A DNA stretch of 26,234 nucleotides from an uncultured Burkholderiaceae bacterium (GCA_964432095.1 CAYSMM010000002.1:1-26234), one strand, 5' to 3'. Counted from the first letter of the stretch, positions 316 to 22,881 are shown. Program-made: numbers and translations. Notes: a model not told the origin generated them from the sequence alone.

Positions 316-386
316 GTACTTCATGCTGTATAATCATGTTACTGGTTTTTAGTAGAGCAGAAATGGTATTATACATAGTACAGTAT
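316..386 (+). repeat. 71-bp dyad-symmetric intergenic element, copy A
   Basis: GTAC-ttcatgct-GTATA-atcatgtt-ACTGG-tttttagtaga-GCAGA-aatggtat-TATAC-atagtaca-GTAT; about 31% GC; ends about 20 bp from the ferredoxin stop. Confidence 0.85.
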
Positions 387-407
387 CAATGTACTATCGT
401 GCCTTGC

Positions 408-743
408 TTATGCCTCGGGCTCATCGGGCAGACGCAGCCTTGCAACCGGTACGCCATTCTTCAGGTGACTTTCGACGATTTCATCGAGGTCGTGTTGGTC
501 GACATACGTGTACCAGACGTTGTCGGGGTACACCACCGCACAGGGGCCTAGTTCGCACCGTTCCAGGCAGCCCGAGGTGTTGACGCGTACCATGCCCGGG
601 CCCTTCAATCCCATGGCCTTGATCTTGTCCTTCACATAATTCACGGCCTGCTCAGCCCCCTGTGCTGCACAACATGGCCGCGGCGCATCGGCAGGCCGCT
701 GGTTCTGGCAAAAGAAAATGTGATGGCGGTAGTAAGACGGCAT
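408..743 (-). CDS. Thioredoxin-like [2Fe-2S] ferredoxin
   Basis: HIFFCQNQR...CC...SGCLERCELGP...VVYPDNVWY motif. Start moved to MPSYY (743) because the upstream extension overlaps the VanZ gene. Confidence 0.9.
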   Translation of the reverse strand: MPSYYRHHIFFCQNQRPADAPRPCCAAQGAEQAVNYVKDKIKAMGLKGPGMVRVNTSGCLERCELGPCAVVYPDNVWYTYVDQHDLDEIVESHLKNGVPVARLRLPDEPEA

Positions 744-807
744 GAGCGACCCGGGTTGAGGAGTGAGTGAAAAGCGCGGAGCGCGTGCAAGTGCACAAGG
801 CGTAATT

Positions 808-1911
808 TTAGTTTTTCGCTGAAACCGCCCTGCGAAACAGGTAAAGCAACGCCGCAAACGGCCATAGCATCGACAGCCAGTGCGCCAACCCATGCAGGCG
901 TATCCAGCGCCCTTGCTGCCATTGCCGCAAGTTGAGGTCGTAGTAGGGATCTTCAGGCAGTTGATTCATCATCGCCAGCAGCAGCACCGCTACTGCCAGG
1001 CCCGCCACGGCGCCCATGCGCGGCGGTGCAAACGACAAACCCAGCGCCACAAGCGTACCCGCTGCGAGCGGCGCGATGTTATCGGCGCTGACCCACTCCA
1101 GCGCATGCAGCGGGCCGTAGCTCATGGCTTGCGACAATGTTGTGGCTGCTGCGCCAGCTGCCAGCACTGCGAGTGTGAGCCACACGCGCGGCGCACGCGG
1201 CTGCGCGATGCTGGCGACAAGCAAGCCCAGAAGCATGCACGCCAGCGCCGGCAGCGCCTGTTGTTGCGGCTCCGACAAACCCGCAGGAGACCAGCCTGCC
1301 AGCCATTGCGCCAAGCTCGTGTCATTCTGCGTGTGCTGCGACAGCCAATCGGTGAACGATGCCACCACGTTGCCCGTGCCAAACAGCACTGGCTGTGGAT
1401 ACAGCAAGGCCGCTGGCCATAAGCCCAGTAGAAGAAGCCCATAGCTGGCGTCGCTGGAAAACCAGTCGTGCCGCGCGATGTACAGCGCGTTGGTAGCACG
1501 CAGCCGCGGAATCACCAGCGCCGCAAGCGCCGCACCCACCAGCGCCCCGGCGGTATTGAGGCCCCAATCCACATTCGACGGTATGCGCTGCGGCATGAAG
1601 CTCTGCGCGGCCTCCATCACGAACGACACCGCAAGCGCCAGCATTGTCGCGGCCAAAACCACTGCCACGCCGCGCAAGCGAGGCAATATCGCAGCGACCA
1701 AAAAAAACCCCAGCGGTACATAGCCCAGCACATTGAGCCAGATGTCTTGCCGTGTGATGTAGCGCGGCCAAGGCGCAGTGACGAAGGCCCAGGGCGCGAT
1801 GCCACGGTATGCCCAGCCCGCAAACGGATACAAGCTGGCATACACCACGACAGCCGCGTACACCGCGAGCGCATAACGCGTCAACGGGGAGGGCTGAAGC
1901 GAGTGCATCAT
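808..1911 (-). CDS. VanZ-family membrane protein
   Basis: SLYPF...D..LNVLGYVPLGFF...E..Q.FMP.R.PSNVDW.LN..G signature; many hydrophobic helices; TGATG overlap with the hemJ stop. Confidence 0.85.
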   Translation of the reverse strand: MMHSLQPSPLTRYALAVYAAVVVYASLYPFAGWAYRGIAPWAFVTAPWPRYITRQDIWLNVLGYVPLGFFLVAAILPRLRGVAVVLAATMLALAVSFVMEAAQSFMPQRIPSNVDWGLNTAGALVGAALAALVIPRLRATNALYIARHDWFSSDASYGLLLLGLWPAALLYPQPVLFGTGNVVASFTDWLSQHTQNDTSLAQWLAGWSPAGLSEPQQQALPALACMLLGLLVASIAQPRAPRVWLTLAVLAAGAAATTLSQAMSYGPLHALEWVSADNIAPLAAGTLVALGLSFAPPRMGAVAGLAVAVLLLAMMNQLPEDPYYDLNLRQWQQGRWIRLHGLAHWLSMLWPFAALLYLFRRAVSAKN

Positions 1912-2333
1912 CAGAAGGGCTTGACCACCACCAGGATGACCGTTGCCGCAAACATGAGCACCGAAAGCTCATTGAATACACGAAACCATTTGTGGCTGCG
2001 GGTGTTTGCGCCCTGCTCGAACTGCCGCAGCACGCGCTTGCAATAGTGCTGATAGCCGACCGCCAGCACCACCAGCGCCAGCTTGGCATGCATCCAGCCC
2101 GCGCCTTTGCCAATGCCGTAGTAAAGCCACAGCGCCAGGCCCAGCGCGAGTGCGACGATCATGAGCAGAGTGCCAAAGCGGTATAGCTTGCGGCCCATCA
2201 GCAGCAGCCGGTCTCGCTCGGCCTCACTGCTAGCCGGTACCATGGCCAGGTTGACAAAGATGCGCGGCAGGTAAAACAGCGCTGCAAACCAGCTGGCCAC
2301 AAAAATGATGTGAAAGGCTTTGACCCAGAGCAT
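1911..2333 (-). CDS. hemJ: HemJ (CopD-like) protoporphyrinogen IX oxidase
   Basis: MLWVKAFHIIFVASWFAALFYLPRIFV...WMHAKL...WFRVFNE...VVVKPF; start moved to 2333. Confidence 0.88.
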   Translation of the reverse strand: MLWVKAFHIIFVASWFAALFYLPRIFVNLAMVPASSEAERDRLLLMGRKLYRFGTLLMIVALALGLALWLYYGIGKGAGWMHAKLALVVLAVGYQHYCKRVLRQFEQGANTRSHKWFRVFNELSVLMFAATVILVVVKPF

Positions 2334-2391
2334 GCAGAGGATTGTATGCAGTCGGTCTCCCTGTCTCACTCAGGCACGCGGCGAGATCACA

Positions 2392-2658
2392 TTAGCTATA
2401 GACCTCACGCCGGTTGCCGAGTTGCACCACCAGCACGCGGATCGTGCCGTCTTGAATATCGCAAATCACCCGGCAGTCGCCCACATGGTAGCGCCACAGG
2501 CCGCCGAGTGTTCCGGTCAGTGCCTTGCCCTTGCTGCGAGGGTCGTCCAGCACTGCAATGCGTTGATCCATGTAGTCGAGAATCCGTCGCGCAGTGGGTT
2601 TGTCCATCTTACGCAACTGCGTGCGCGCGGTGTGGGTGTACTCAATCGTCCAGGCCAA
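2392..2658 (-). CDS. RelE/ParE-superfamily (RelE/StbE-type) toxin
   Basis: 88 aa; PRSKGKALTG.LGGLWRY.VGD.RVICDIQD...LVVQLGNRREVY; directly downstream of an RHH antitoxin gene. Confidence 0.9.
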   Translation of the reverse strand: MAWTIEYTHTARTQLRKMDKPTARRILDYMDQRIAVLDDPRSKGKALTGTLGGLWRYHVGDCRVICDIQDGTIRVLVVQLGNRREVYS

Positions 2659-2869
2659 GATCGCGCCTTACGTCCGCAGCCGAATGCACTTTCTCCTGCC
2701 CCTTGCGCACCCGCTCCAGCACCTCGGCCGCGAGGTAGTAGTCCTCCAGATCGTCAATGTGCTGTTCGATGATCTCTCGCAGGTAATACGCCTTTGTACG
2801 GCCAGTCTGACTGGCAAGAAAGTCGAGCCGTTGCTCAATGTCCGGCGCAAGCCGAATGGACGTTGCCAT
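2642..2869 (-). CDS. Ribbon-helix-helix (CopG/RelB-like) antitoxin
   Basis: 75 aa; MATSIRL...EQRLDFLASQTGRTKAYYLREII...LEDYYLA; overlaps the toxin start by 17 bp. Confidence 0.88.
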   Translation of the reverse strand: MATSIRLAPDIEQRLDFLASQTGRTKAYYLREIIEQHIDDLEDYYLAAEVLERVRKGQEKVHSAADVRRDLGLDD

Positions 2870-2893
2870 GATTGCGTCACCCCAGTTGAATGC

Positions 2894-2920
2894 GTGTATT
2901 CACTGTAGTTAGTGTATCAC
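2894..2920. promoter_or_regulatory. Candidate TA autoregulatory operator (two GTG-tat(t)-CAC boxes)
   Basis: GTGTATTCAC (2894-2903) and GTGTATCAC (2912-2920) lie 25-50 bp upstream of the antitoxin start. RHH antitoxins commonly bind tandem short palindromes. Confidence 0.35.
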
Positions 2921-3009
2921 TTGGCCTCTATGGTGCACTTGTTCTTGCACCAGTGGCAGGTGAGTTACACAGTTTGCACGGCACCCGAGGCCAAGTGACG
3001 ATTGCGCAG

Positions 3010-3043
3010 AAAAAAGCCCCGGCGGCCTTGCAGCAACCGGGGC
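3010..3043 (-). terminator. Intrinsic terminator
   Basis: GCCCCGG...CCGGGGC stem (3016-3043) followed by U6 (A-run at 3010-3015 on the + strand). Confidence 0.75.
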
Positions 3044-3116
3044 GAAAAGCCTTAAAAACGCTAAGGCTCCCGCTCAGGGAGGAAAAGCGGGGATTCCAGG
3101 CTTTCGCCCGGAATCG
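3010..3116 (-). ncRNA. Candidate small RNA (~107 nt) with an anti-SD loop
   Basis: Four consecutive hairpins on the minus strand: a 10-bp stem with GAAA loop (3092-3115), CCCGCT-UUUCCUCCCUG-AGCGGG (3069-3091), AGCCUUA/UAAGGCU (3048-3068), and a terminator with U6. It has its own -35/-10. Confidence 0.6.
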
Positions 3117-3122
3117 TTGCCA

Positions 3123-3150
3123 AGTGTAATGGCAAGTATGCTGGCGGCAA
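3123..3150 (-). promoter_or_regulatory. Candidate sigma70 promoter for the sRNA
   Basis: TTGCCG (3150-3145), 16-bp spacer, TACACT (3128-3123); implied start at about 3116, right at the first hairpin. Confidence 0.5.
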
Positions 3151-3210
3151 AGCACGAAGGCGACAATTAGAGGCTTGGCCCCAGCGGATGTCGCACAATA
3201 CGCGCAATAG

Positions 3211-4221
<1,011 letters not shown>

Positions 4222-4248
4222 TGCGATCATAGTGCGCGAGCCCGACCC

Positions 4249-5373
4249 ATGCGCGTGTTTCACATCAACAGCCGTGTGAGCGAAGCCGGCGAGTTGCCGC
4301 AGCAATTGCCTGAGCAGGGCTTTGTGTGGGCGTCGTTCAGCCGACGCGAGTTTGAAATCAGCGCTCCCGACTTGCAAGCTGCGCTGGTGCGTTTTGGTCT
4401 GCAGCCGCTGATGGACTTGCATCTGACCGATATGCTCAACAATCAGTTGCCCTCGCACTATGACTACACCACGCAGTACGACATCCTGGTGTTTCGGCGC
4501 CTGGCGGCGGGTCAGTCCGAGCGTGACCCGAACAAGCCCGGCGCCTTGCTCACGCAGCGCCTGAGCAGCAGCGGTCCGCCCGTGCTGCGCCGTATCGACA
4601 CCAGCCCCGTGGCCTTTGCCTTGTTCGACCGGTTTTTGATTACCGTGCACCCAGCCGACTGTAGCGTGCGTGAGAACTTTGCTGCACGCCTGTTGAATGT
4701 GGGCAACTCGGCGATTCAAGAAGTAACGACACTGGACTCGCGCGGTGTGAGCCGCCTGCCCTCCAGCGCTGCCGACTTGATGATGCGCCTGGTCAACACC
4801 ATGGTCGACGGTTACCTGGAGCTGCGCCGCGAGTTGACCAAACAGCTCGACCATTGGCAAGCCGAGCTGCTCGATCCATCCACGCGCTTTACCAACTGGA
4901 AGTCGCTGCTCGACGCGCGCAGTGCGCTGCATTCGCTAGACGATATTTGCGAAGATCAACGCGGCGCCGTGCAGGAGTGGATCGACACGCTCGAAGAGTG
5001 GCCCGAACCCGAGACGCCCACTGCGCGGCGCGAGCGAGACGCGCTCAAAGTGCGCTCGCGCGACGTGCTCGAGCACATCGAGCGCGTGGTGCATCACGTG
5101 CGCCGGCTCGAAGCGACGGCGGAGTCTGCGGTGCAAATGCATTTTTCGGCCGTGGCCAATCGCACCAACGCCACCATGCGCACGCTCACTGCGCTCACCG
5201 CCATCTTTTTGCCACTCAACCTCATCACCGGCATCTTCGGCATGAACTTTGAGCGCATGCCGTTTTTAAAGGAGAGCTGGGGCTTTGCGTTTGCCATGTC
5301 GTGCATGCTGCTCGTGGCCTTGCTGATTGTTCTGGTGTTCATGCAAAAGCGCTACCTGCGCTCGCGCGGCTGA
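4249..5373 (+). CDS. CorA-family Mg2+/Co2+ transporter
   Basis: C-terminal TAIFLPLNLITGIFGMNF (GMN motif) plus a second TM helix. Confidence 0.92.
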   Translation: MRVFHINSRVSEAGELPQQLPEQGFVWASFSRREFEISAPDLQAALVRFGLQPLMDLHLTDMLNNQLPSHYDYTTQYDILVFRRLAAGQSERDPNKPGALLTQRLSSSGPPVLRRIDTSPVAFALFDRFLITVHPADCSVRENFAARLLNVGNSAIQEVTTLDSRGVSRLPSSAADLMMRLVNTMVDGYLELRRELTKQLDHWQAELLDPSTRFTNWKSLLDARSALHSLDDICEDQRGAVQEWIDTLEEWPEPETPTARRERDALKVRSRDVLEHIERVVHHVRRLEATAESAVQMHFSAVANRTNATMRTLTALTAIFLPLNLITGIFGMNFERMPFLKESWGFAFAMSCMLLVALLIVLVFMQKRYLRSRG

Positions 5374-5407
5374 GCGCATGCCCGCTCCAATTACATCAGC
5401 TTCTCAT

Positions 5408-5478
5408 ATACTCCATATTCTATAAAGCCTTTACTGGTAATATTTATTGACTGAGAATCTGTATACTTATTGAAGTAA
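5408..5478 (+). repeat. 71-bp dyad-symmetric intergenic element, copy C
   Basis: ATAC-tccatatt-CTATA-aagccttt-ACTGG-taatatttatt-GACTG-agaatctg-TATAC-ttattgaa-GTAA; about 27% GC; right central half-site degenerate. Confidence 0.78.
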
Positions 5479-5708
5479 TCCAGTAATCGAATATCAAGCG
5501 AGCTTTGATCCGCACGCTTACAGCACCGTGCCTCGCCAGGCATTGATCTGCATTGTTCGGTATCCAGGTGCGCCAACCTGCGATCACCCGGTAGCTTTGA
5601 TGCAACGGGCTGATCACGGCGACTTGCTGGGCGCACGGCCGCAGCGAGGGCGGTGGCTATAAGCCGCTCGTGAGAGCGAGCGGGCTTGACCGCCGCGTTG
5701 CAGGGCTT

Positions 5709-5737
5709 TTGATTTTGCCGGCAAAGTACTGTATATT
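5709..5737 (+). promoter_or_regulatory. Candidate sigma70 promoter of the Y-family polymerase
   Basis: TTGATT (5709-5714), 17 bp, TATATT (5732-5737); the -10 lies inside the LexA box. Confidence 0.5.
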
Positions 5738-5746
5738 TAAACAGTA
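5727..5746. promoter_or_regulatory. LexA (SOS) box
   Basis: TACTGTATATTTAAACAGTA matches the beta/gammaproteobacterial CTG-N10-CAG consensus with TA flanks and abuts the start codon of an error-prone polymerase. Confidence 0.92.
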
Positions 5747-7215: not shown

Positions 7216-7285
7216 ACTCAGTTTCATTTCTCCTGAAATCTGAGGTTTCCATTTACGGGCGGCCTTAAGGCCGCTCTTTTCTTTT
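7216..7285 (+). ncRNA. Candidate small RNA (~70 nt) with a CU-rich loop
   Basis: CTCAG-TTTCA-[TTTCTCC]-TGAAA-t-CTGAG hairpin (7217-7244), then a strong terminator; TAATAT at 7204-7209 could be a -10, but there is no convincing -35. Confidence 0.4.
7257..7285 (+). terminator. Intrinsic terminator
   Basis: GGGCGGCC-TTAA-GGCCGCTC followed by TTTTCTTTT. Confidence 0.8.
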
Positions 7286-7421: not shown

Positions 7422-10283
7422 ATGAGTCGATTGAAGGGGCGTCAACCACGCAGGTTGACCATGTCGCCAGTGATGAAAGGTTTGATTCTGGCGTTCGGCA
7501 GCAGTAGCTTGCTGGCCGTTACTTACGCACAGCAGAGCACACAAGCTGCACCGGCAGAGCAGCAGGCACAGAAGCAAGAGCGTATCGAGGTCACAGGCTC
7601 CAGCATCCGACGTACCGATGCGGAGACCGCATCGCCGGTGCAGGTGATTACGCGTGAAGAGATTTCGCGCTCCGGCAAGCAAACGATTGCCGAAGTCATT
7701 CAAACGGTTTCGGCAAACAATCAGGGCTCGATTCCCGGCGCATTTACGGCGGGCTTTGCCTCAGGCTCTGCGGCCGTGTCGCTGCGCGGGCTAGGAGTCA
7801 ATGCCACATTGGTGTTGGTCAATGGCCGGCGCATGGCGCCTTATGGTTTGGCCGACGACGGGCAGCGCACCTTCGTCGACTTGAACGCTATTCCGCTGGA
7901 GGCTATTGAGCGTGTCGAGGTGTTGAAAGACGGCGCATCAGCGATCTATGGCTCAGACGCAATTGCCGGGGTAGTCAACATCATCTTGCGCAAAGACTAC
8001 CAGGGTGTGACGGCTGCTGCGACGCTAGGCACCTCGCAAGAAGGCGATGGCAACCTGGTGCGCGCGTCAGTGTCGGCCGGGTTCGGCAACCTGGCGCAGG
8101 AAAAGTACAACTTCAGCTTCACCATGGAAGCGGCCAAGGAAGAGCGCATCGTGCACAGCGACCGCGATGGCTACCTGGGTACCAACGACTTGCGCGCGTT
8201 TGGCTGGTACGACAATCGCCGCGGCGCTTTCGGTGCGGGGTTTGGTGCGTTCCCAGACGGCACGCCGGCTTTCAATGCTGCAACACCTTACGGCACCGTG
8301 CGCAGTGGCACCCCCAATGTCACCACTGGCCCAGGCGTGGGCTCGCCGTTTTATGACCGCGTCAACCTGAGTGCATGCCCCGAGATCAACCCGCTCACCA
8401 ACGTGTGTCTGTTCGACCCGATCAACTACGAAGAAATTCAACCGGAGACAGAGCGCTTCAACATCACCGGCCGAGGCAGCTTTCAGTTGACGCCGGATTG
8501 GCTGGCTTATACCGAACTGGGCTTCTTCACCACCAAGGTGTCGAGCCAGACCTTCCCATCGGGTGTGCGCAACGTGGGCGGTGTGTTCGACCCGCGTAAC
8601 CCTTCTGCACCTGTGCCGCAAATCACTGTGCTGCCCGCAGGGCACCCCGACAACCCGCTGGGCATCAATCGCGGGCTGTTCTATCAAACGGCAGACGTGG
8701 GCCCTCGCCGCAACGAGACGGATACGGAAGTGCAGCGCTGGGTGGCAGGGCTGCAGGGCTCGTTGCAAGAGTGGAATCTCGATGCCGGCATTGGCTATCT
8801 GGAGAGCAAGACAAAGACGACCCGCAAAGGCTTCATTCGCTTCAGCGCGCTGCAAGCAGCACTGGACAACGGCACTTATCGCATCAACAACCCTGGTTTG
8901 GTATCGCGCGAGGTGTACGACGTGATTTCGCCCGCGCTCGTCAACACCAGCAAAAGCAGCATTACCTTCATTGATGCCAAAGCCTCGCGTGACCTCATAC
9001 AGCTGCCGGGCGGTGCGTTGGCGCTGGCGCTTGGCACCGAGTACCGCGAAGAGAAAGCTGACACACCGCCAACGCCCTTTACCGAGGTGGCCGACATCAT
9101 CGGCCTGGGGTTCTCGGCTTTCAAAGCCAAGCGCGACGTGACGGCGGTGTTTGCGGAGTTGAGTGCACCAGTGCACAAGACACTGGAGCTCAACGCTGCG
9201 GTGCGCGTAGATAACTACTCCGACGTCGGCACTGCTACCACACCGAAGCTGGGGGTGAAGTTCAGCCCGGTCAGACAACTCTCGATTCGTGGCACCTATG
9301 CCGAGGCCTTCCGCGCGCCGGGGCCTGCAGAGGCCGGCGAAAGTGCATCAGCCGGCTTCACCAACATCCTCAACATCAGCGTAGGCAACCCGAACATCAA
9401 GCCCGAGAAGGCCAAGAGCACGACCCTGGGTATCATTTTCGAACCCATGCCCGGCACCAGCGCGACGCTGGATGTTTATCAAATCAAGCGTCGCAATGAG
9501 ATTTTGGGGGCTGATCAGGCATTGGTGCTGGTGCCCAACACCGGCGGGCTGGCCAACGGCAGCTTGCCAGGTGCGGTACCCGGCTCGTTCGGCTTCTATG
9601 ACGAAAACGGCGACCTCACCGCAATCTTGAGCCCATATACCAATGCCACGTTCACCAAAACCAAGGGTATCGACCTCGATCTGCGCCAGCGTTTCAACCT
9701 GGGGGACTATGGACGCCTGACCGCCGGGCTGACGCTGACGCACATCCAAAGCTTCAAGCGCTCGCTCACCGACGGCCGCGTGCTGGAGTATGCGGGCACG
9801 CATGGCCCGTTTGTGTTGAGCGCTGCAGGCGGCACACCCAAGAACAAGGCGGTGCTGTCGTTTGCTTATGACCGTGGGCCCTGGGCCGGCACGGTCAACT
9901 TCAACTACGTGAGCGGCATGAAAGCGATCGATCACGAAGGTGAGACGCTCGTGGACAATGAAGACGGCACGTACTCCACCACCACCGCAGAGGGTGCGTT
10001 CTTCAACGTCGATCCCAATGGCTTAGCCTGCGGTGTGTTTCACCCCGACGGCCGGCCGCTCAACGGCGATTGCCGCATTCCGTCGTTTACCACCGCCGAC
10101 GTATCCGTCAAGTACAGCGGCATCAAAAACCTGGAGCTGAGCTTTTCAGTGCTCAACCTGTTTGATCGCAAGGCACCGTTCGACCCCTACACCTATGGCG
10201 GTGTGAACTACAACCCAGTATTCCATCAAGCCGGTGCGGTCGGTCGTTTCTTCAACATTGGAGCACGCTACAAGTTTTACTGA
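7422..10283 (+). CDS. TonB-dependent outer-membrane receptor
   Basis: AGGAGA RBS, signal peptide, TonB box ERIEVTGSSI, plug motifs LVLVNGRR and IERVEVLKDGASAIYGSDAIAGVVNII, C-terminal ARYKFY. Confidence 0.95.
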   Translation: MSRLKGRQPRRLTMSPVMKGLILAFGSSSLLAVTYAQQSTQAAPAEQQAQKQERIEVTGSSIRRTDAETASPVQVITREEISRSGKQTIAEVIQTVSANNQGSIPGAFTAGFASGSAAVSLRGLGVNATLVLVNGRRMAPYGLADDGQRTFVDLNAIPLEAIERVEVLKDGASAIYGSDAIAGVVNIILRKDYQGVTAAATLGTSQEGDGNLVRASVSAGFGNLAQEKYNFSFTMEAAKEERIVHSDRDGYLGTNDLRAFGWYDNRRGAFGAGFGAFPDGTPAFNAATPYGTVRSGTPNVTTGPGVGSPFYDRVNLSACPEINPLTNVCLFDPINYEEIQPETERFNITGRGSFQLTPDWLAYTELGFFTTKVSSQTFPSGVRNVGGVFDPRNPSAPVPQITVLPAGHPDNPLGINRGLFYQTADVGPRRNETDTEVQRWVAGLQGSLQEWNLDAGIGYLESKTKTTRKGFIRFSALQAALDNGTYRINNPGLVSREVYDVISPALVNTSKSSITFIDAKASRDLIQLPGGALALALGTEYREEKADTPPTPFTEVADIIGLGFSAFKAKRDVTAVFAELSAPVHKTLELNAAVRVDNYSDVGTATTPKLGVKFSPVRQLSIRGTYAEAFRAPGPAEAGESASAGFTNILNISVGNPNIKPEKAKSTTLGIIFEPMPGTSATLDVYQIKRRNEILGADQALVLVPNTGGLANGSLPGAVPGSFGFYDENGDLTAILSPYTNATFTKTKGIDLDLRQRFNLGDYGRLTAGLTLTHIQSFKRSLTDGRVLEYAGTHGPFVLSAAGGTPKNKAVLSFAYDRGPWAGTVNFNYVSGMKAIDHEGETLVDNEDGTYSTTTAEGAFFNVDPNGLACGVFHPDGRPLNGDCRIPSFTTADVSVKYSGIKNLELSFSVLNLFDRKAPFDPYTYGGVNYNPVFHQAGAVGRFFNIGARYKFY

Positions 10284-10314
10284 CGTCACTCATCACTACC
10301 GCAACGCGAGACTT

Positions 10315-10349
10315 GGCCCGCAGGAGCAAGATGCCTGCTGGCTCTTTTC
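10315..10349 (+). terminator. Weak candidate terminator after the TonB receptor
   Basis: GGCC-c-GCAGG...CCTGC-t-GGCT then CTTTTC; the stem is interrupted and the U-tract is short. Confidence 0.3.
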
Positions 10350-10402
10350 ATTGCGGTGATTCACAGGTAAGCATGCAAATACCGGTCAACATCAATACTT
10401 TT

Positions 10403-10473
10403 ATACATCGGTATCTGTACAGTTTCTACTGTTTATTAATTATCTAGTAATCGGCATATAGATAGGAAAGTAT
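10403..10473 (-). repeat. 71-bp dyad-symmetric intergenic element, copy E
   Basis: Minus strand: ATAC-tttcctat-CTATA-tgccgatt-ACTAG-ataattaataa-ACAGT-agaaactg-TACAG-ataccgat-GTAT. Confidence 0.8.
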
Positions 10474-10517
10474 ACAGTATGCTGAGTGCGTCACCACTTG
10501 GCTGATGCAGCGCTTGT

Positions 10518-11465: not shown

Positions 11466-11536
11466 ATACAGCATTATGTATATATGCTTTACCGGTTTAT
11501 GGCAAAGCAGAGAGGTGCATATAGACACAACAGTAT
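11466..11536 (+). repeat. 71-bp dyad-symmetric intergenic element, copy F
   Basis: ATAC-agcattat-GTATA-tatgcttt-ACCGG-tttatggcaaa-GCAGA-gaggtgca-TATAG-acacaaca-GTAT. Confidence 0.85.
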
Positions 11537-14495: not shown

Positions 14496-14654
14496 GCGTC
14501 GTAGTCGGTATGGTTTTGCCGGGCCGGGTAAATGGCATCCCTTGCACGCGGCGGGCAGCGAGGGCCTAGGCACGCGCGGCGCAGGTAAACTCTCAAGTTT
14601 ACTCTTGCCGCATTGCCGCCTCCATGCTGCTGCTGCGGGCAAACTCCCCTCGCC

Positions 14655-16448: not shown

Positions 16449-16465
16449 AGAATCCATAAAGATTG

Positions 16466-16536
16466 ATACTCATTGGTGTAACATGCCGTTTCTGGTTATT
16501 GAGAAACCAGTAAACGGCTTATACACTGTAATGTAT
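16466..16536 (-). repeat. 71-bp dyad-symmetric intergenic element, copy G
   Basis: Minus strand: ATAC-attacagt-GTATA-agccgttt-ACTGG-tttctcaataa-CCAGA-aacggcat-GTTAC-accaatga-GTAT. Confidence 0.85.
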
Positions 16537-16624
16537 AAGTCTAATCGGCATGTCATCATCGTCCTGGCGTCGTGACAGGCGCATGGAGTTCTGGCCAAGG
16601 CCAGGTTATCGAGGCCATTAACAC

Positions 16625-17551
16625 CTAAATCGTAGCTGCCCGCCGATGCAGCTTGCCTTGCGCATCCACCGCCAGATACGCCACGCCGAGCGTGTTGAGG
16701 TAGTCGAGCGCGGCGCTCTCCTTGAGCATGGCAATGGTGGTGATGGCGCCTGCGATGAGGGCGTGCGATGCCAGCACGCTGACGCTTTGCCATGCGCGTA
16801 CCGGCCAGCCGGTGTGCGGGTTGAGAATGTGGCAGTAACGTTGGCCGTCCAGCTCAAAGTAGCGCTCGTAGTCGCCGCTGGTGGCCAGTGCGCCCTGCGC
16901 CACGGGCAGTGAGGCGATCACCTCGTCTGCCTTACGCGGGTGCGCGATGGCAATCAGCCACGGTGTGCCGTCAGACTTGGGCCCGATCACGCGTACATCG
17001 CCGCCGAGGTTGACAAAGCCATGTGCAATGCCGTGCTGCTGCAGTATGGTGGCGGAGCGGTCGGCGGCATATTCTTTGCCGAAGCCGCCAAAGTCGATTT
17101 GCATGCCGACCTCGGGCAGTGCAATGCGGCGGTGGTCCGCGTCCCATTGCACCTGTGGCCAACCGATGAGGCGCAGCACCTCATCGATCTGGTTTTGCGC
17201 AGGCACACGCCGGGCTTGAAAGTCCCACACACGGCGCAGCACGCCGGAGGTAATGTCGAACAGCCCGCCGCTTTGCGCATGCAGTTGCGCTGCGAGGGTG
17301 AGCAGTTGCGCGCATTCCTCAGTCACCTCCACGGCCTGGCCGCTGCCGGCAGAAGCATTGATGCGGCTGACGATGCTGTCCGCACGGTAACGCGAGTAGG
17401 TGGACTCGATACGCTGCACTTCGGCCATTGCCAGCTGTGCCGCAGCCTGTGCCGCAGCTTCGCTGACACCGGCAATGCGTAATTCGCAACGCGACGCCAT
17501 GGCGGTGAACTCAAAGCCCAGGCTGTCGGTTTCAATATGCGCGCTTGTCAT
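16625..17551 (-). CDS. apbE: FAD:protein FMN transferase (ApbE family)
   Basis: F.AMASRCEL, S.YRADS.VSRIN, GLFDIT, DFGGFGKEYAAD, NLGGD, ATSGDYER, HILNPHTGWP; no lipoprotein signal seen; start uncertain (17551 or 17500). Confidence 0.92.
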   Translation of the reverse strand: MTSAHIETDSLGFEFTAMASRCELRIAGVSEAAAQAAAQLAMAEVQRIESTYSRYRADSIVSRINASAGSGQAVEVTEECAQLLTLAAQLHAQSGGLFDITSGVLRRVWDFQARRVPAQNQIDEVLRLIGWPQVQWDADHRRIALPEVGMQIDFGGFGKEYAADRSATILQQHGIAHGFVNLGGDVRVIGPKSDGTPWLIAIAHPRKADEVIASLPVAQGALATSGDYERYFELDGQRYCHILNPHTGWPVRAWQSVSVLASHALIAGAITTIAMLKESAALDYLNTLGVAYLAVDAQGKLHRRAATI

Positions 17552-17631
17552 GCACGGGAGTGTCGCAGATCGCCTGACAGTGTTGTACAAATCGTCACGC
17601 CCGCGGCGTGGCGCTGCTGCACAATCAGTGG

Positions 17632-19011
17632 ATGACGAAATTGATTCGCAGTGTGTGGCTGTCGTTGCGTGAGGGCCTGCTGGTGTGGGCGCCGTTCGTG
17701 ATGCTGACTTTGCTGCTGCTGGCGCTGGCGTACTGGGTGCTCAAGCCCACGCCACCCAAGCAGGTGATGCTGGCTACGGGCCCTGAGCAGGGCGCGTACG
17801 ACACCTTCGGCAAGCTGTATGCGCAGGCGCTGGCGCGCTATGGCATCACAGTGCAAACCCAGCGAAGTGCGGGCTCGGTGGCCAACCTCGGCAAGCTGCG
17901 TAGCGCCCCCGCCGAGGTGCAGATCGCGTTTGTGCAAGGCGGCAGTGCACCGGCCGAGTTACGGCAGGCCGCGGATGATGATGTACTGGGCAGCAGCAGC
18001 GAGCTGGTATCGCTGGGCAGTTTGTTTTATGAGCCGGTGTGGCTGTTCTACCGCGAGGACGCCGTTCGGCGCGCAGCCGGTGCGCGCACGCCCCGGCCGG
18101 TGCCTGCGCCTGCGGTGCTCGATTCGCTGGATGGCCTGCGTGGCTGGCGCGTGAATGTGGGCACCGAGGGCAGCGGCATCACGCCGGTGGTGATGCACCT
18201 GCTGGACGCCAACAACATCGACGCGAAAGAGCTGACACTGCTGCGGCTGGATCACACGCCGGGTGTCATCGAGCTGCTGGAGGCGCGTGCCGATGCGATG
18301 TTTTTTGTGAGCGCGCCCGAAAGCCCGCTCATCCAGATGCTGCTGCAAACACCGGGTATCCGCCTGTTTGACTTTGCGCAGGCCGAGGCGTATTCACGCC
18401 GCTTTCCATACTTGAGCCATGTCACGCTGCCGCGCGGCATCGTGGATTTGGGCCGCGACATTCCAAGTCAAGACTATCGCTTGATCGCGCCGACGGCCAC
18501 GTTGCTGGCACGGCGTGATCTGCACCCGGCGCTGATGCAGTTGTTCATGCAGGCCGCGGGGCAGATTCACGGCAGTGCGGGCTGGTTTCGCAAGGCCGGG
18601 GAGTTTCCGAGCGCGCGCAACAACGAGTTTCCGGTGGCCGAGGAGGCGCAGAAGTTTTTGCGCAATGGCCCGCCGCTGCTGCAGCGCTACCTGCCGTTCT
18701 GGCTGGCCAATCTCATCGAGCGCATGTGGGTGGTGTTGGCCGCCATCATTGCGGTGATGCTGCCGCTGTCGCGAATCGTGCCGCCGCTGTATGAGTTTCG
18801 CATCCGCTCACGCATCTTCCGCTGGTACGGCCAGTTGCGCGCGATCGAGGAAAGCCTGAGCAAACCTGGCGCAGACCGCGAGGCACAGCTCGCGCAGCTC
18901 AACGCGATGGAGCAGCGCGTGGAGCGCATTGCCGTGCCGCTGTCGTATGCTGACGAGCTGTATGCGCTGCGTCAGCACATCGACTTGGTGCGTTCGCGTG
19001 CGAGGGCCTAG
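17632..19011 (+). CDS. TAXI-family TRAP solute-binding protein with terminal TM segments
   Basis: LATGPEQGAY, SAGSVANL, IAFVQGG, LGSLFYEPVWLFYR, VNVGTEGSG, LPRGIVDL; C-terminal hydrophobic segment. Confidence 0.85.
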   Translation: MTKLIRSVWLSLREGLLVWAPFVMLTLLLLALAYWVLKPTPPKQVMLATGPEQGAYDTFGKLYAQALARYGITVQTQRSAGSVANLGKLRSAPAEVQIAFVQGGSAPAELRQAADDDVLGSSSELVSLGSLFYEPVWLFYREDAVRRAAGARTPRPVPAPAVLDSLDGLRGWRVNVGTEGSGITPVVMHLLDANNIDAKELTLLRLDHTPGVIELLEARADAMFFVSAPESPLIQMLLQTPGIRLFDFAQAEAYSRRFPYLSHVTLPRGIVDLGRDIPSQDYRLIAPTATLLARRDLHPALMQLFMQAAGQIHGSAGWFRKAGEFPSARNNEFPVAEEAQKFLRNGPPLLQRYLPFWLANLIERMWVVLAAIIAVMLPLSRIVPPLYEFRIRSRIFRWYGQLRAIEESLSKPGADREAQLAQLNAMEQRVERIAVPLSYADELYALRQHIDLVRSRARA

Positions 19012-19033
19012 ACTACTTAATTCAGAATCAATG

Positions 19034-19104
19034 ATACACAAATGAGTATAATGCCATCACTGGTTTTTATGAGATCAGAAACGGCACTATAGTAATGACA
19101 GTAT
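19034..19104 (+). repeat. 71-bp dyad-symmetric intergenic element, copy H
   Basis: ATAC-acaaatga-GTATA-atgccatc-ACTGG-tttttatgaga-TCAGA-aacggcac-TATAG-taatgaca-GTAT; shares ACTGGTTTTTA and ACAGTATCAATGT with copy A. Confidence 0.88.
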
Positions 19105-19258
19105 CAATGTTTCAGGAAACGCTGAATAAGCTTGGCGAGCGGGTGCAAGGCAAGGAACGGGGCCCAATAAGAGCCAGAGCTTACTCAAGCGTAAGTGAGG
19201 GTTCTTGTTGGGCTGTGACGTAGCATTGCGCCCGCGCAGCCGCTTAGGCAGCGTTTTC

Positions 19259-20482
19259 CTAGAAGTTGCGAGTGATGCCCAGCTGCAGCACACTAGCCTT
19301 CAGCGGCTCGATGCCAGGGCTGCCTTCGCCGCCGATGCGCCAGTCACTTTTCTGCTGGTAAGCCTCGAACTTGCCGTCCACCAGCCAGTCTTTGGTGATC
19401 TGATAATTCGCCTTCAGGCCCAGCGTCACCGCACCGAAAGCCGACAGGCGATGATCGACCGAGCGGTAGCGGTCAGGCGTAAACGTAAACAATGCCAGCG
19501 GCACTTGTGACACCGGGCTAGTGGGGTCGGGGTCGTAGTAAAACGCCGCCGAGTTTTGCGTGTAATAGCGCAAGCTGGGCGTCAGCGTGAGCTTGGGCGA
19601 CACCGGCTGTGCCCAGTCCACCTCCACCGAATGGCCGCGGATATTGAACGTGTCGGCGTAGTAGCGGTAGGCCATGCGCAGCGCAGCATCGGTGCGCTTG
19701 ATGTAGTGGTTCCAGCGCACCAGGAAGATGTCCTGGTCGCGGAACAGCGGACGGCGGTCCAGTAGCCGGTATGGGTCGTTGTAGGCCGATGTGCCCACGC
19801 GCATGTTGGTGCTCTTGCCCTCATTGCGCGTGTAGGTGAACTGCATGATGTCGTTTTGCGAGACCACTTGCGTGAGGCCCAGCGACAGCTCGTTGATCCG
19901 CTTGTCGCCCCACACGGTGGGGCTTTCCTCAGGCCCACGTACCGTGTCGCGCGAGACGCCGACGCCTACATTCAGCGTGGTGTTCTTGCTCTCGGTGGAA
20001 ATGCTGCCGCTGACGCCAAAGCCGCGAGATGAGTAATCGTCTTCATCGGAGGTGGCCACGTTGGCCGACAGTGTGCCGCGCGAGAAGTAGCGAGTGACCT
20101 TCAGGCTTGCGCCGGTGCGTTTGTCTTCCATGCGCGAGGCGCTGGACACCACGGAGTAGGCGCGCGGCGTGGCGCCCGATACCCCGTCGTACTCGGCCGA
20201 GGCCTCCACACTCCACTGCCCTGCAATCGGCACCACGAGATGCACGGACGGTTGATTCACGGTAATGCGATCAAGCCCTGGCTGAGCGTCTTTGTAGCGC
20301 AGGTAACGCAAAGAGATGCTGCCGTTTTCAGGAATCTGCTGCGCCTGCGCCGTGCCAGGCAGGGCCACCATACCCGGCAGTGCGAGCGCTGCACAACTCA
20401 GCGCGGCAAGTTGGGCCGAGACGGTCGGCGCGTGTTTCGCAGACTTGCGGATGTTTTTTACCTTAGTTTTTTTGTGCTTCAT
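19259..20482 (-). CDS. DUF3570-family outer-membrane beta-barrel protein
   Basis: Signal peptide, alternating beta strands, DGVSGAT, YRYYADTFNIRGHSVE, C-terminal RNF; located downstream of DUF4266 and TlpA. Confidence 0.85.
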   Translation of the reverse strand: MKHKKTKVKNIRKSAKHAPTVSAQLAALSCAALALPGMVALPGTAQAQQIPENGSISLRYLRYKDAQPGLDRITVNQPSVHLVVPIAGQWSVEASAEYDGVSGATPRAYSVVSSASRMEDKRTGASLKVTRYFSRGTLSANVATSDEDDYSSRGFGVSGSISTESKNTTLNVGVGVSRDTVRGPEESPTVWGDKRINELSLGLTQVVSQNDIMQFTYTRNEGKSTNMRVGTSAYNDPYRLLDRRPLFRDQDIFLVRWNHYIKRTDAALRMAYRYYADTFNIRGHSVEVDWAQPVSPKLTLTPSLRYYTQNSAAFYYDPDPTSPVSQVPLALFTFTPDRYRSVDHRLSAFGAVTLGLKANYQITKDWLVDGKFEAYQQKSDWRIGGEGSPGIEPLKASVLQLGITRNF

Positions 20483-20587
20483 CTGATGTTTCGTAGTGAA
20501 ATACCGAAGCGCGTGCAAGCAGTGGCGAAACTAGCAGTCGCTTTGATGCTGCACTACGCCCGTACAGCCGAATGAGGCAGCAGCTTC

Positions 20588-20857
20588 TCAGTTGCAGCCG
20601 CAGCCACCGCCACCCACCCCATAGCCGCCTTGCGCATTTTCCTTACTGTTGTACACATGCGCGCGCGCGCGCTGGTCAGCACCGCCCCCGTCAAGGCGCA
20701 TCTGCGGTTTGGCTAGGTTGCCCTTCTCCCAAGGTTGCACCTGGCCGAGCTTGCTGCCCGCACAGCCCGTGAGCGCAAGCGCTGCGAGGCCTACGGCCGC
20801 GATGCGCACCCAGTGCCCTGCGCCGTGTTGTGTCCCATGTATTGCCGTCAATGTCAT
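20588..20857 (-). CDS. DUF4266-family lipoprotein
   Basis: Lipobox LTGC; VQPWEKGNLA..M....HVYNSKE.A.GG.GVGGGGCGCN. Confidence 0.88.
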   Translation of the reverse strand: MTLTAIHGTQHGAGHWVRIAAVGLAALALTGCAGSKLGQVQPWEKGNLAKPQMRLDGGGADQRARAHVYNSKENAQGGYGVGGGGCGCN

Positions 20858-20902
20858 TGCGTCGTTCCTGTCCGGGAAATTGAATCGATAGTCAATCAGT
20901 CG

Positions 20903-21427
20903 CTAGTTGGCAGCTTTCACAGCCTGGGAGATTTTTTCTTCCAGTTCTTTGGTCATAGCGGTGTTGAAGCCCGAGTGCACTGCCAGCACTTTGCCGTCGC
21001 GCCCCACCAGCACCGAGCTGGGCATACCCTTGACCTTGTATTGCTTGGGCGACTGCGCGGTAGCGTCGAACGCCACGGCAAACTTGGCAGGCACCTCGCT
21101 CAAAAACTGCTGTGCCAGCTTGCGCTCGTTATCCAGGTTGATCGCCACCACCTTGAAGCCTTGCTCGCCGTACTTGGATTGCATCGCATTCATCCACGGG
21201 AAGGATTCACGGCACGGCGCGCACCACGATGCCCAAAAATCCACGTACACCACTTGGCCTTTCAAATCGGCCAGGCGCACTTGCTGGCCGGGCATTACGC
21301 CGGGCAGCTCGAACGCTGGTGCAGCCTGGCCTGGCTGTGCCGCATGCGATGCACCGCTAAGCGAGGCCATGGCAGTGACCGCAGCCACAACCAGCGCTGT
21401 GTTGAGTTTCTTCTTGGGGATCATCAC
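20903..21427 (-). CDS. TlpA-family thiol:disulfide oxidoreductase
   Basis: Signal peptide, AP.FEL, VVYVDFWASWCAPCRESFPWMN, GMPSSVLVGRDG. Confidence 0.93.
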   Translation of the reverse strand: MMIPKKKLNTALVVAAVTAMASLSGASHAAQPGQAAPAFELPGVMPGQQVRLADLKGQVVYVDFWASWCAPCRESFPWMNAMQSKYGEQGFKVVAINLDNERKLAQQFLSEVPAKFAVAFDATAQSPKQYKVKGMPSSVLVGRDGKVLAVHSGFNTAMTKELEEKISQAVKAAN

Positions 21428-21984
21428 TTCTCACCTTGTTGAACCGCTTGAGCCGAACGCCTGTCGGCGCGGCTTTGCCACAGGCGCCACGCCAGCACAC
21501 CGGTAGCCAATGCCGCCATCAATGCCAGCAGCGGATCCACCAGGCTCGTGCGGCCCACGGCGATGGTGCAGCCACCGCCACCTACATTGGTGGGTTCACT
21601 GGTTGTCGCCGTACTACCGCTACCGCCACTGCTGGGAGGAGGATTACCCACTGCCGATGGGTTGGCCAGGTATGCCGCGATATCCGCGTAGTCGGCCGTC
21701 ACCATGTATTGGCCGATGTAGCCCATTGCGCCTTTGTTCTGCCCGACTGCTGTGGCAATCAAGCCGGGGTTATTGGCAGCCCGGCGTGCAATGCTGTCAG
21801 GTGGGCTGCTGTGGCAACCCGCGCAACTAGAAGGGCTACCCGTCGTACCGGGCAAGGTGAAGTACAAATCGCGCCCGCGTTGGGCGTTTTGTGCGAAAGC
21901 CGGGCTGAGGGCGCTGAACGCGGCGATGGCTAGCGCAGCGCAGGCAGCAGGCAGTGCAGACTGAGGGCGTATTCCGGGGTGCAT
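21424..21984 (-). CDS. Small monoheme c-type cytochrome with a JDVT-CTERM-like sorting tail
   Basis: Signal peptide, CAGCH (21811-21825), distal AMG, Ser/Gly linker, then GGGGCT...DP, a TM helix and basic residues; ATGA overlap with tlpA. Confidence 0.8.
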   Translation of the reverse strand: MHPGIRPQSALPAACAALAIAAFSALSPAFAQNAQRGRDLYFTLPGTTGSPSSCAGCHSSPPDSIARRAANNPGLIATAVGQNKGAMGYIGQYMVTADYADIAAYLANPSAVGNPPPSSGGSGSTATTSEPTNVGGGGCTIAVGRTSLVDPLLALMAALATGVLAWRLWQSRADRRSAQAVQQGEK

Positions 21985-22244
21985 CGAGAGTCTCTTTTTT
22001 CTTGCTACGGCTCGCAGGATCGACTACCGCAATCATCTGAAAACCTTAACGAAATTCCGCTTCTAATACAGTAACAGAGGGTGAGTTGAGTCAGTGTTAC
22101 AACATTGCGCCATCCGTCCCGCCGAGGAGCGACTGTTGTACTGTCATCACAGTCGTTGAATAATGAGACAGAATTTGCGACGTTTTCGCGGCTTGGCGTA
22201 ACCGCCCAGCCGTACTTAACAAGGCGCAAGCCTGGAGGTGTGAT

Positions 22245-22802
22245 TTGCGGGTGCTCAGACTAGACGTAGCCGGCCTTCCGCGGGAGTGGCTGACAACAAC
22301 CGAGGCGGCCTTGCTCTACGCCACCGATTGCGTGGTGTGGACGCTGGGCGACCCGTTCGCGCGCCTGCGCGGTGGCGTACAGCGCGCCACGGGCGTGCAG
22401 TCGCGCATCGACGTGCACCCCATCATTGCTACCCGTGGCGCGGCGCCCAACTTCGTGTTCGGGCAGACGCCGTCGCTGTCGAACCGCAAGCTGTTCGCGC
22501 GCGACCGGCATATCTGCGCCTATTGCGGCGGGCATTTCCACAGCGACCATTTGACGCGTGACCATATCGTAGCCACCTCGCGCGGTGGGCACGACACGTG
22601 GATGAACTGCGTCACGGCTTGTCGCACTTGCAACGGTTTGAAAGGCAGCAAGCTGCCCGAAGAGGCGGCCATGCCGCTGCTTTATCTGCCCTATGTGCCC
22701 AATTTGCACGAGGACATGATCTTGCGCGAGCGTCAGATTCTGGCCGATCAGATGGAGTTTTTGCGTGCAAGCCTTCCCAAGCACAGCCGCCTTCATAGCT
22801 AA
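22245..22802 (+). CDS. HNH endonuclease
   Basis: LFARDRHICAYCG...LTRDHIV..SRGG.DTWMNCVTACRTCNGLKG; TTG start 6 nt after GGAGG. Confidence 0.92.
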   Translation: MRVLRLDVAGLPREWLTTTEAALLYATDCVVWTLGDPFARLRGGVQRATGVQSRIDVHPIIATRGAAPNFVFGQTPSLSNRKLFARDRHICAYCGGHFHSDHLTRDHIVATSRGGHDTWMNCVTACRTCNGLKGSKLPEEAAMPLLYLPYVPNLHEDMILRERQILADQMEFLRASLPKHSRLHS

Positions 22803-22811
22803 CGGATTCTT

Positions 22812-22881
22812 ATACTATAACGACTATCATAGTTTATTCTTCTACGAGCGGCCAGTGATTGCACTATAGATAGTGTAGTAT
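22812..22881 (-). repeat. Dyad-symmetric intergenic element, copy I (70 bp, one base short)
   Basis: Minus strand: ATAC-tacactat-CTATA-gtgcaatc-ACTGG-ccgctcgtag-AAGAA-taaactat-GATAG-tcgttata-GTAT; fills 70 of the 83 intergenic bases. Confidence 0.75.

Follow-up and report, generated by a model that had tools for sequence, protein, structure and literature searches.

A 71-bp AT-rich extragenic element at gene ends in uncultured Burkholderiales, a candidate binding site for an oligomeric protein on duplex DNA

Introduction

Most extragenic repeats of bacteria are recognised by their near-identical copies, and their function is still debated; new families of extragenic palindromic repeats are found regularly. 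In enterobacteria, repetitive extragenic palindromic (REP) sequences and bacterial interspersed mosaic elements (BIMEs) serve as gyrase and IHF sites, and the role that we propose here for a 71-bp element of an uncultured Burkholderiaceae bacterium would be similar. The element occurs seven times in the window, by which we mean a whole contig of 26,234 bp and 60.8% GC (GCA_964432095.1, CAYSMM010000002.1:1-26234); the clade DNA covered here comprises this contig and short overlapping contigs. Our tentative reading is that the copies form a clade-restricted, AT-rich extragenic family, REP/BIME-like or akin to miniature inverted-repeat transposable elements (MITEs), which would be read as duplex DNA by an oligomeric protein at the ends of genes.

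The closest known kinds in genomic behaviour are REP, BIME and REPIN (REP doublet forming hairpin) sequences and MITEs such as the Correia element, although most of the defining features of these families that can be checked by sequence are missing from the element. Like REPs, BIMEs and REPINs, it is a short, multi-copy extragenic palindrome found mostly downstream of genes and between convergent genes, and like BIMEs and REPINs it consists of two inverted units about a short centre with a conserved end tetranucleotide (GTAT here, GTAG in REPs). Its orthologous sites, like those of REPs and BIMEs, are kept for a long time, and the roles proposed for those repeats lie in supercoiling, termination and mRNA stability. 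REP units end in GTAG (with the variants GYAG, GYRG, GTRG, GTMG and GTGG) or in CGTC (PMC3733652), and the end tag GTAT/ATAC of the element falls outside the listed variants (PMC3733652). Whereas a REP is a 20-40-bp unit with a 5-13-bp, usually G+C-rich stem-loop, the 30-nt arms of the element offer only the 4-bp complement ATAC/GTAT around a non-pairing N8. REPs are GC-rich but the element is AT-rich (~30% GC), its copies share a spaced motif only rather than near-identical sequence, and its length is fixed at 71 bp. The extragenic downstream location agrees with a REPIN, but the long hairpin of a REPIN has a counterpart only in the five of 15 copies (those of the window and its relatives) that pair beyond the motif, and the cognate RAYT (REP-associated tyrosine transposase, an IS200/IS605-type Y1 transposase) is encoded neither in the 26-kb window nor in the fetched loci.

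The terminal inverted repeats of a MITE are present, but the target-site duplication is not seen, and neither a parent nor young copies came to light: the seven copies include no near-identical paralogues, and neither viral contigs nor plasmids nor phages contain the motif. Correia elements (NEMIS) resemble the element as small (~70-150 bp) inverted-repeat sequences near genes that carry promoter-like TATA sequences, can be co-transcribed and fold as hairpins, and vary in presence between related lineages. They differ in that the element keeps only ~9 spaced positions of its terminal repeats, where they have an unbroken repeat of 20-26 bp, and in that the element has no near-identical copies and keeps the same positions over ~38% neutral divergence.

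LexA-type 4-N8-4 boxes and the LysR-type ATAC-N7-GTAT sites of BenM and CatM are composite operators read by oligomers. The element shares with them short palindromic half-sites, a fixed spacer, several dyads and selection on contact bases only, but such operators lie in regulon promoters and not after stop codons, and the spacer of the element is N8 as against the LysR-type N7. The organism's own LexA box, CTGT-N8-ACAG at 5727-5746, is the sole match in the window at two or fewer mismatches and lies outside the elements. A reading made from the sequence alone before this analysis (hereafter the sequence-only reading) had been unable to match the element to dif, attC, parS, matS, LexA or REP sites, and our motif tests agree. 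Sites for parS, matS and the Neisseria DNA uptake sequence (DUS) had no match inside the elements, an IHF site no exact match, and an H-NS nucleation motif a single 2-mismatch match, in copy c2. Among the terminator-like sites listed, none with the G+C-rich hairpin and T-run of an intrinsic terminator falls on an element. Likenesses to sigma-28, sigma-54 and T7-type promoters, the Tn5 mosaic end, the TTAC/TCAA cleavage sites of IS608, NarL 7-2-7 sites, the lux box, the DasR dre site and the Fur box all failed on spacing or held for single copies only.

Results and discussion

Seven copies share one register, and six share one length

All seven copies listed in the sequence-only reading were recovered, on the same strands and at the same positions: c1 at 316..386 (+; first base G, not A), c2 at 5408..5478 (+; ending in GTAA, with a weak right half), c3 at 10403..10473 (-), c4 at 11466..11536 (+), c5 at 16466..16536 (-; the best palindrome in the window, minimum free energy -24.9, z -5.8), c6 at 19034..19104 (+) and c7 at 22812..22881 (-; with a decayed right half). 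Six are 71 bp long and c7 is 70 bp, and the seven align without gaps save for the 1-nt deletion in c7. Each is an AT-rich island with a GC content of 0.27-0.37, as against 0.61 for the window. The copies have the common register ATAC-N8-STATA...TYACYRG...A-N8-AGTAT, within which 15 columns are invariant in all seven: TAC (2-4), TATA (14-17), T24, A26, C27, G30, A58 and GTA (68-70). The full motif as originally worded is somewhat idealised: ACTGG is exact in 5/7 copies and the right-hand TATAS in 4/7; for CCAG the count is 1/7 and for CAG 5/7. The accompanying statement that the left half is better kept than the right holds, at 31.6 bits of information against 27.9 bits.

The family is not an artefact of chance or composition. 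The sub-motif ATAC-N8-STAT occurs 14 times in the window, always at element ends, compared with 0.22 +/- 0.52 times in dinucleotide shuffles. A hidden Markov model (HMM) built from the seven copies, and later one built from 15, matched in the window the seven copies and nothing else. The observation also survives an AT-matched null, here 2 Mb generated by a first-order Markov model that had been trained on the copies, in which the best HMM score was 14 bits, compared with 30-47 bits for the real copies, and the strict pattern had no match.

The consensus of the 15 copies, ATACt......TgTATA...c..TtACtGg....t...A.a.CaG.aA...Ca.taTA.t.a....AGTAT, carries ~60 bits against an AT-rich background. 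It varies least in its two terminal modules, which are inverted relative to each other, have the form ATACt-N6-nT[G/C]TATA, each contain the 4-N8-4 palindrome ATAC-N8-GTAT and lie exactly 55 bp apart from centre to centre; the arm consensus pooled from both ends is ATACT....t.tgTATa.tgc..TtaCtG. Between the modules lies a weaker central dyad, T(T/C)ACTGG-N11-CCAG(A/T)AA. TAC/GTA cores are found at positions 2, 13, 25, 45, 57 and 68, that is, every 11-12 bp except over the centre, and all 15 copies have the ends ATAC...GTAT save for one altered end base each in c1 (GTAC) and c2 (GTAA). At the variable columns paralogues are only ~30-57% identical, and no pair among the seven is near-identical.

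Outside the element proper, TCAG stands 9-12 nt ahead of the ATAC end in four of the seven copies (c1, c2, c3 and c6; for example at 304-307, 5396-5399 and 19022-19025) and is not kept in the c1 orthologues. CAAT(G) directly follows the GTAT end in c1, c5 and c6 and in their orthologues from the lineage at 93% identity described below. The functional unit may reach a few bases past the 71 bp.

Orthologous copies occupy matching sites within a restricted clade

Queries with the ApbE, amidohydrolase and hydrolase proteins against 5.8 billion proteins returned few close relatives, and a chimeric query directed past both contig ends brought up relatives of the left-edge hydrolase only. The same strain is present in JGI metagenomes 3300037501 and 3300043177 at 99.96-100% identity, with an identical copy of c2 in the JGI contig L001. 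Contigs L005, L006, L007, L012 and L013 represent a lineage at ~93% nucleotide identity, and L008, L011 and L018 (JGI 3300078831) one at ~80%. Further source metagenomes of the clade are JGI 3300037506, 3300043180 and 3300043270 and SRR12687782. Beyond these two lineages, the best matches are to the Methylibium, Piscinibacter, Caldimonas and Paucibacter group, at 62-75% amino-acid identity.

Both lineages carry 71-bp copies at matching intergenic positions. Orthologues of c1 lie at L012:3047-3117, L013:818-888 and L018:2111-2181; that of c4 at L011:499-569 (-); those of c5 at L007:1331-1401, L006:1647-1693 (cut by the contig end) and L008:4533-4603; those of c6 at L005:5919-5988 (-) and L008:3311-3381 (found by eye, then confirmed by the 15-copy HMM); and that of c7 at L005:2100-2170, where the copy is 71 bp long and a better palindrome than c7 itself. 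Of the 15 distinct copies, 13 have a length of exactly 71 bp and the other two a length of 70 bp. Such sites, kept across ~13.5% and ~38% divergence at four-fold degenerate sites, bear out the original statement that the copies do not reflect recent transposition.

Presence or gene neighbourhood differs between lineages for some copies. Copy c3 is absent in L011, from the 80% lineage, where the TonB-receptor gene is absent too (window 7422-10473 compared with L011:1570-1770), and on the far side of the c4 orthologue in the same contig lies a gene that matches neither uvrA nor the rest of the window. In L008 the NMT1_3 gene has been lost and the neighbouring c6 orthologue kept (window 17608-19104 compared with L008:3304-3437). 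In the outgroup contigs L014-L017, which have 69% GC and are 82% identical in the hydrolase gene, the genes that flank c1 overlap, so that the entire 138-bp spacer is missing; L014, accordingly, has no copy at the c1 site.

The 69% GC outgroup contigs yielded neither an AT island nor an HMM match, and in 33 kb of a 70% GC relative (L019 and L020) there was no 70-bp stretch below 42% GC and no HMM match. The element-bearing clade has 58-62% GC, compared with 69-70% in the nearest relatives found, whose genes are also packed more tightly; it is missing from a collection of genomes from 185,579 species and is known from a few metagenomes only. A strict IUPAC pattern, which matches just two of eight independent orthologues and could therefore miss diverged families, gave two chance matches in JGI metagenome contigs, none in viral contigs and one chance match, in a Bacillota metagenome-assembled genome, among the 185,579 species-representative genomes. 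BLAST searches of the copies against plasmids and phages returned chance matches only. It is unlikely that any sequenced species harbours a large family with this motif.

Motif positions change less than neutral sites, and spacers do not

At four-fold degenerate sites, the genes that flank the copies differ from the window by 13.5% in the 93% lineage and by 37.8% in the 80% lineage. We compared with these rates the 15 columns that are invariant among the window paralogues, a set defined without use of the orthologues. In the 93% lineage only 1 of 60 motif positions had changed (binomial p 0.002 versus neutral), compared with 61 of 222 other positions (27.5%; Fisher p 2e-6). In the 80% lineage the counts were 5 of 45 (binomial p 7e-5 versus neutral) and 87 of 168 (52%; Fisher p 4e-7). 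The orthologue comparison shows that ~15 positions are under purifying selection, in line with the initial proposal of selected positions at fixed distances separated by differing spacers.

Intergenic DNA outside the elements differs by 10.2% (72/707) in the 93% lineage, a rate that is uneven, the flanks of c1 and c5 being themselves fast; for this reason we describe the spacers only as unconstrained and possibly accelerated. Differences between orthologues are clustered, and despite this turnover there are nearly no indels; the distance between the two ends is therefore under constraint. Synteny and the ungapped 71-bp register argue that the orthologues are correctly placed. Polarising the changes with the 80% lineage as outgroup was uninformative, as both sister lineages had changed.

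Copies lie just beyond stop codons

All seven copies occupy spacers just past one or more stop codons, at a distance of 4 to 44 nt from the nearest, and the density in the window is one copy per 3.7 kb; the hundreds of copies per Mb extrapolated in the sequence-only reading would follow only if this density held throughout the genome. Four copies (c3, c5, c6 and c7) are between convergent genes, three (c1, c2 and c4) between tandem genes, and none in a divergent promoter region. Among the convergent ones, c3 (10403..10473) is 44 nt past the amidohydrolase stop and 119 nt past the stop of the TonB-receptor gene, beyond that gene's own GC-rich terminator; c5 (16466..16536) is 17 nt past the ssb stop and 88 nt past that of apbE; c6 (19034..19104) is 22 nt past the stop of the NMT1_3-family gene and 154 nt past that of the DUF3570 gene; and c7 (22812..22881) is 4 nt past the MobA-like stop and 9 nt past the HNH stop. 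Among the tandem ones, c1 (316..386) follows the stop of the 2Fe-2S-thioredoxin-like gene (-) by 21 nt and precedes the ATG (269) of the alpha/beta-hydrolase gene (-) by 46 nt; c2 (5408..5478) follows the corA stop by 34 nt and precedes the Y-family polymerase gene by 267 nt; and c4 (11466..11536) follows the uvrA stop by 19 nt and precedes the called start of the amidohydrolase gene by 18 nt.

Eleven gene 3' ends that face a spacer were counted. Seven of them (2Fe-2S-like, corA, amidohydrolase, uvrA, ssb, NMT1_3 and MobA-like) are no more than 45 nt from a copy, as is the HNH end on the other side of c7, and two (apbE, 88 nt; DUF3570, 154 nt) are farther from one. The ends of the TonB-receptor and Y-family polymerase genes have classic GC-rich hairpins with a T-run, and so do those of the PhoX-like gene and the anti-hemB small RNA (sRNA), which are outside the count of 11. 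The element is thus not the organism's sole end signal, and copies and GC-rich terminators tend to alternate. No listed terminator-like site coincides with an element (classic ones lie at 7257-7276(+) and 25385-25363(-)), and direct reading showed no T-run after the stems of the elements. The orientation of the element, judged by its better-kept half, bears no fixed relation to the incoming transcript (c2 as against c1 and c4).

Conservation of sequence and conservation of pairing

The sequence-only reading had held that the spacers mostly do not pair, and had on that account dismissed an RNA hairpin. The first statement is right for most copies and fails for c5 (z = -5.8) and for several orthologues that are near-perfect palindromes; the dismissal was correct in that no common fold exists but came too quickly, since in five of 15 copies the complementarity of the spacers exceeds chance. 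RNAalifold found no consensus pairs on 12 copies. When a hairpin of the c5 type was imposed on the alignment, 66% of positions paired, compared with 64% in column shuffles, and covariation was weak; Rfam held no family match overlapping any element, at gathering score or at E <= 10. Single copies fold unevenly: c1_L012 (the L012 copy of c1; other orthologues are named likewise), c5, c5_L008 and c6_L005 have z of -4.8 to -6.8, and c2, c3 and c5_L007 fold near chance, with z >= 0 for c2 and c3. Against shuffles that preserve the motif, in which 40 consensus columns were fixed and the free columns shuffled, the mean z was -1.4 (p = 0.008), and 10 of 15 copies folded no better than the shuffles.

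The copy c1_L012 is an almost perfect palindrome, TGTATAATGCTTTTACTGG-N11-CCAGTAAAGGCATTATACA, and is 70% identical to c5, as against 57-59% to its positional orthologue c1. The family thus appears to be palindromic in origin, with the palindromy sometimes renewed, possibly by selection, by template-switch repair of quasi-palindromes or by in-place replacement of copies. Conservation across all copies is of sequence at fixed positions rather than of pairing.

A proposed duplex site for an oligomeric protein

We propose that a sequence-specific oligomeric protein would recognise the element in its double-stranded form. Contacts on the duplex are suggested because fixed positions are selected and spacers are free, because no RNA fold is shared and because the length is fixed. 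One dimer would occupy each terminal ATAC-N8-GTAT palindrome, which has the geometry of a LexA box with another sequence, and the dimers would be bridged over the flexible AT-rich centre; with TAC/GTA cores every ~11-12 bp, the contacts would share one helical face. Where transcription units end, such a complex could form a boundary, as a roadblock, a supercoil sink or a nucleoid anchor, and so block or absorb read-through and supercoiling between neighbouring genes, a role that we suggest because the copies sit after stop codons. In origin the element would probably be a palindromic non-autonomous mobile element, as near-perfect palindromes of 60-70 bp, AT-richness relative to the host and absence from the nearest outgroups suggest. 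The idea of protein contacts at fixed spacing goes back to the sequence-only reading; selection, fixed length and the lack of a shared fold fit it, and the binding protein itself we infer.

A more specific version, possible but doubtful, is that the copies are docking sites of a dedicated, clade-specific protein that would mark most transcription-unit ends, using the two ATAC-N8-GTAT palindromes 55 bp apart as binding points and acting as an orientation-independent roadblock terminator, supercoil insulator or nucleoid anchor. Such sites would be a bacterial counterpart of DNA-bound terminators and insulators of the mTERF kind, and distinct from the REP/gyrase and IHF systems.

Several points weigh against recognition of the element as duplex DNA by an oligomer. 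No candidate binding protein can be named from the 26-kb window, the part of this genome that the proposal draws on. In the 80% lineage, preservation of the central dyad is poor, and most of it has been lost. Five of 15 copies fold far better than motif-preserving shuffles, as long near-perfect palindromes, and c5 and c5_L008 are both good hairpins with differing stem sequences and bulge positions, so a single-stranded or cruciform form of the element may matter. A location at gene ends would also arise simply from insertions being tolerated there, and the deep orthologues were placed partly by a model trained on the window, which introduces some bias toward the motif columns.

Alternative explanations

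The same features could belong to a selfish element, a MITE- or REPIN-like non-autonomous palindrome without host function whose terminal ATACt...TGTATA modules are transposase-binding ends, and we regard this as a possible but unlikely account. Its copies would persist at gene ends because they are harmless there, and retention of the motif beside a fast interior would reflect replacement or re-mobilisation rather than host selection. The palindromic architecture with its inverted terminal modules, the near-perfect palindromy of some copies and the AT-richness of the element in a GC-rich host all suit such an origin, as do the variable presence (L011 lacks c3, and the outgroups have no copies at all) and the synteny breaks that adjoin c3 and c4 in L011. 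Orthologue changes are clustered, span several bases and accumulate at ~2x the four-fold-site rate, and c1_L012 is nearer to c5 than to c1. Other observations speak against it. The comparison of orthologous loci proposed at the outset found copies at the same sites in relatives and an empty c1 site in L014 but no consistent target-site duplication: flanks of the seven copies and their orthologues contain no consistent direct repeat, and only c6 has CAATG on both sides. No transposase gene, RAYT or other, is present in the window or the fetched loci, and the ~30-57% identity of paralogues at variable columns gives no sign of young copies. Neutral decay of dead copies, moreover, would not lead one to expect the same sites and the same 15 positions to be kept without indels over ~38% neutral divergence.

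Three further explanations are less likely still. That the element acts as RNA, as a 3'-UTR (untranslated region) hairpin that stabilises or terminates the upstream transcript or as an RNase III target, as proposed for REP and Correia sequences, is improbable, although the copies lie 4-45 nt past stop codons and are thus probably transcribed, four of them (c5, c1_L012, c5_L008 and c6_L005) fold strongly, the differing stems at one orthologous site look compensatory, and most gene ends that abut a copy have no classic intrinsic terminator. There is, however, no consensus structure, pairing hardly exceeds that of shuffles, two thirds of the copies (10/15) show no folding advantage over motif-preserving shuffles, the stems are not followed by a U-tract, Rfam has no match and the orientation toward the incoming transcript varies; conservation concerns sequence at fixed positions. 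Quite improbable is a promoter cassette, in which each arm would carry an inward TATAAT-like hexamer (14-19 and its mirror) with a start at the conserved Y25-A26 ~7 nt downstream, giving short or antisense transcripts or, in the tandem contexts of c1, c2 and c4, those of the next gene. TATAAT, TATAGT or TATAAG does stand at 14-19 in many arms, A26 is nearly invariant and c1, c2 and c4 are upstream of a co-oriented gene, yet no -35 element is found at 16-18 bp, about half of the arms lack the key -7 T, and a sigma-70 promoter scan found sites at only three of seven elements (c4, c5 and c6), in differing registers. Four of the seven copies, being between convergent genes, would have nothing to drive, and the conserved ATAC/AGTAT ends and the fixed 71 bp are left unexplained. 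We consider it highly improbable that the copies are sites for site-specific recombination (Xer/dif-, attC- or res-like) that border exchangeable gene modules. Three dyads in a row recall res sites, ATAC-N8-GTAT is built like a core site, and gene content beside c3 and c4 differs between lineages; like attC, one element stands past a gene 3' end as an imperfect palindrome of similar size, with low identity between copies and one unpaired base in the c5 hairpin. The tyrosine-recombinase analogy drawn in the sequence-only reading nevertheless found no support, nor did an Xer one: the 28-bp dif site, an 11-6-11 arrangement near GGTGCGCATAATGTATATTATGTTAAAT, has no match in the window even at seven mismatches, and four-base arms are too short for known tyrosine-recombinase binding elements. 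The R'' (RYYYAAC) and R' (GTTRRRY) boxes of attC are missing, GTTRRRY not occurring in or within 15 bp of any copy. Structure is not conserved as it is in attC, most junctions are stable across lineages, no integrase or other recombinase gene lies nearby, and the flanks are housekeeping genes in both orientations (uvrA, ssb, hemB-corA and apbE), not co-oriented cassettes.

Neighbouring genes and other features of the contig

The contig is ordinary Burkholderiales chromosome. From left to right it encodes an alpha/beta hydrolase, a 2Fe-2S-thioredoxin-like protein, VanZ, UPF0093, a parE/antitoxin pair, the anti-hemB sRNA and hemB-corA; then a Y-family polymerase, a TonB-dependent receptor, an amidohydrolase, uvrA, MFS-ssb, apbE and NMT1_3; and then a DUF3570/DUF4266/redoxin operon, HNH, MobA-like, OsmC and alanine dehydrogenase/PNT genes and PhoX, the last a fragment that runs off the right edge.

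The HNH endonuclease gene (22245-22802, +) stands alone 9 nt from c7, is kept in the 93% lineage (L005:2180-2671) and is the only nuclease-like gene that adjoins an element. The divergent apbE (-) and NMT1_3 (+) genes have just 17 bp between their called starts (17590-17608), and the longest open reading frames for uvrA (-) and the MFS gene (+) have 5' ends that overlap (14613-14642); both cases reflect either miscalled start codons or promoters within coding sequence. A perfect E. coli-type LexA (SOS) box, TACTGTATATTTAAACAGTA at 5727-5746, directly precedes the Y-family (DinB/UmuC-like) polymerase gene, its last base being the A of the called ATG (5746). SOS control of this gene is probable, and the gene could be leaderless or have its start farther downstream; no comparable box at two or fewer mismatches precedes uvrA or ssb.

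An anti-hemB sRNA (Rfam RF02837, 69.9 bits, E 1e-14) lies at 3008-3093 (-), with its own GC-rich terminator, upstream of hemB (3223-4221). The family was described in Burkholderia, to which the present lineage of Burkholderiales is only distantly related. A ParE toxin and DUF6290-type antitoxin pair (2392-2869, -), situated between UPF0093 and the anti-hemB/hemB region, is present in the window and the 93% lineage (L012:564-1041) and absent in the 80% lineage (L018:1-170). This difference appears to be the insertion or loss of a module, with no 71-bp element alongside.

Implications

What makes the element unusual is the combination of AT-richness in a GC-rich genome, a fixed length of 71 bp, copies that share a spaced motif only, and clear purifying selection at orthologous gene ends. 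It also draws attention to a clade of uncultured Burkholderiales with ~61% GC, as against ~70% in its nearest relatives, that is outside the genome collections. Over ~38% silent-site divergence the copies have been reduced to what appears to be a functional skeleton of ~15 bases at fixed spacing within 71 bp. Such a skeleton would amount to a natural footprint and offers a precise probe for pulling down the binding factor. The element could thereby serve to test whether some bacteria mark the ends of transcription units by protein-bound DNA instead of, or besides, RNA hairpins.

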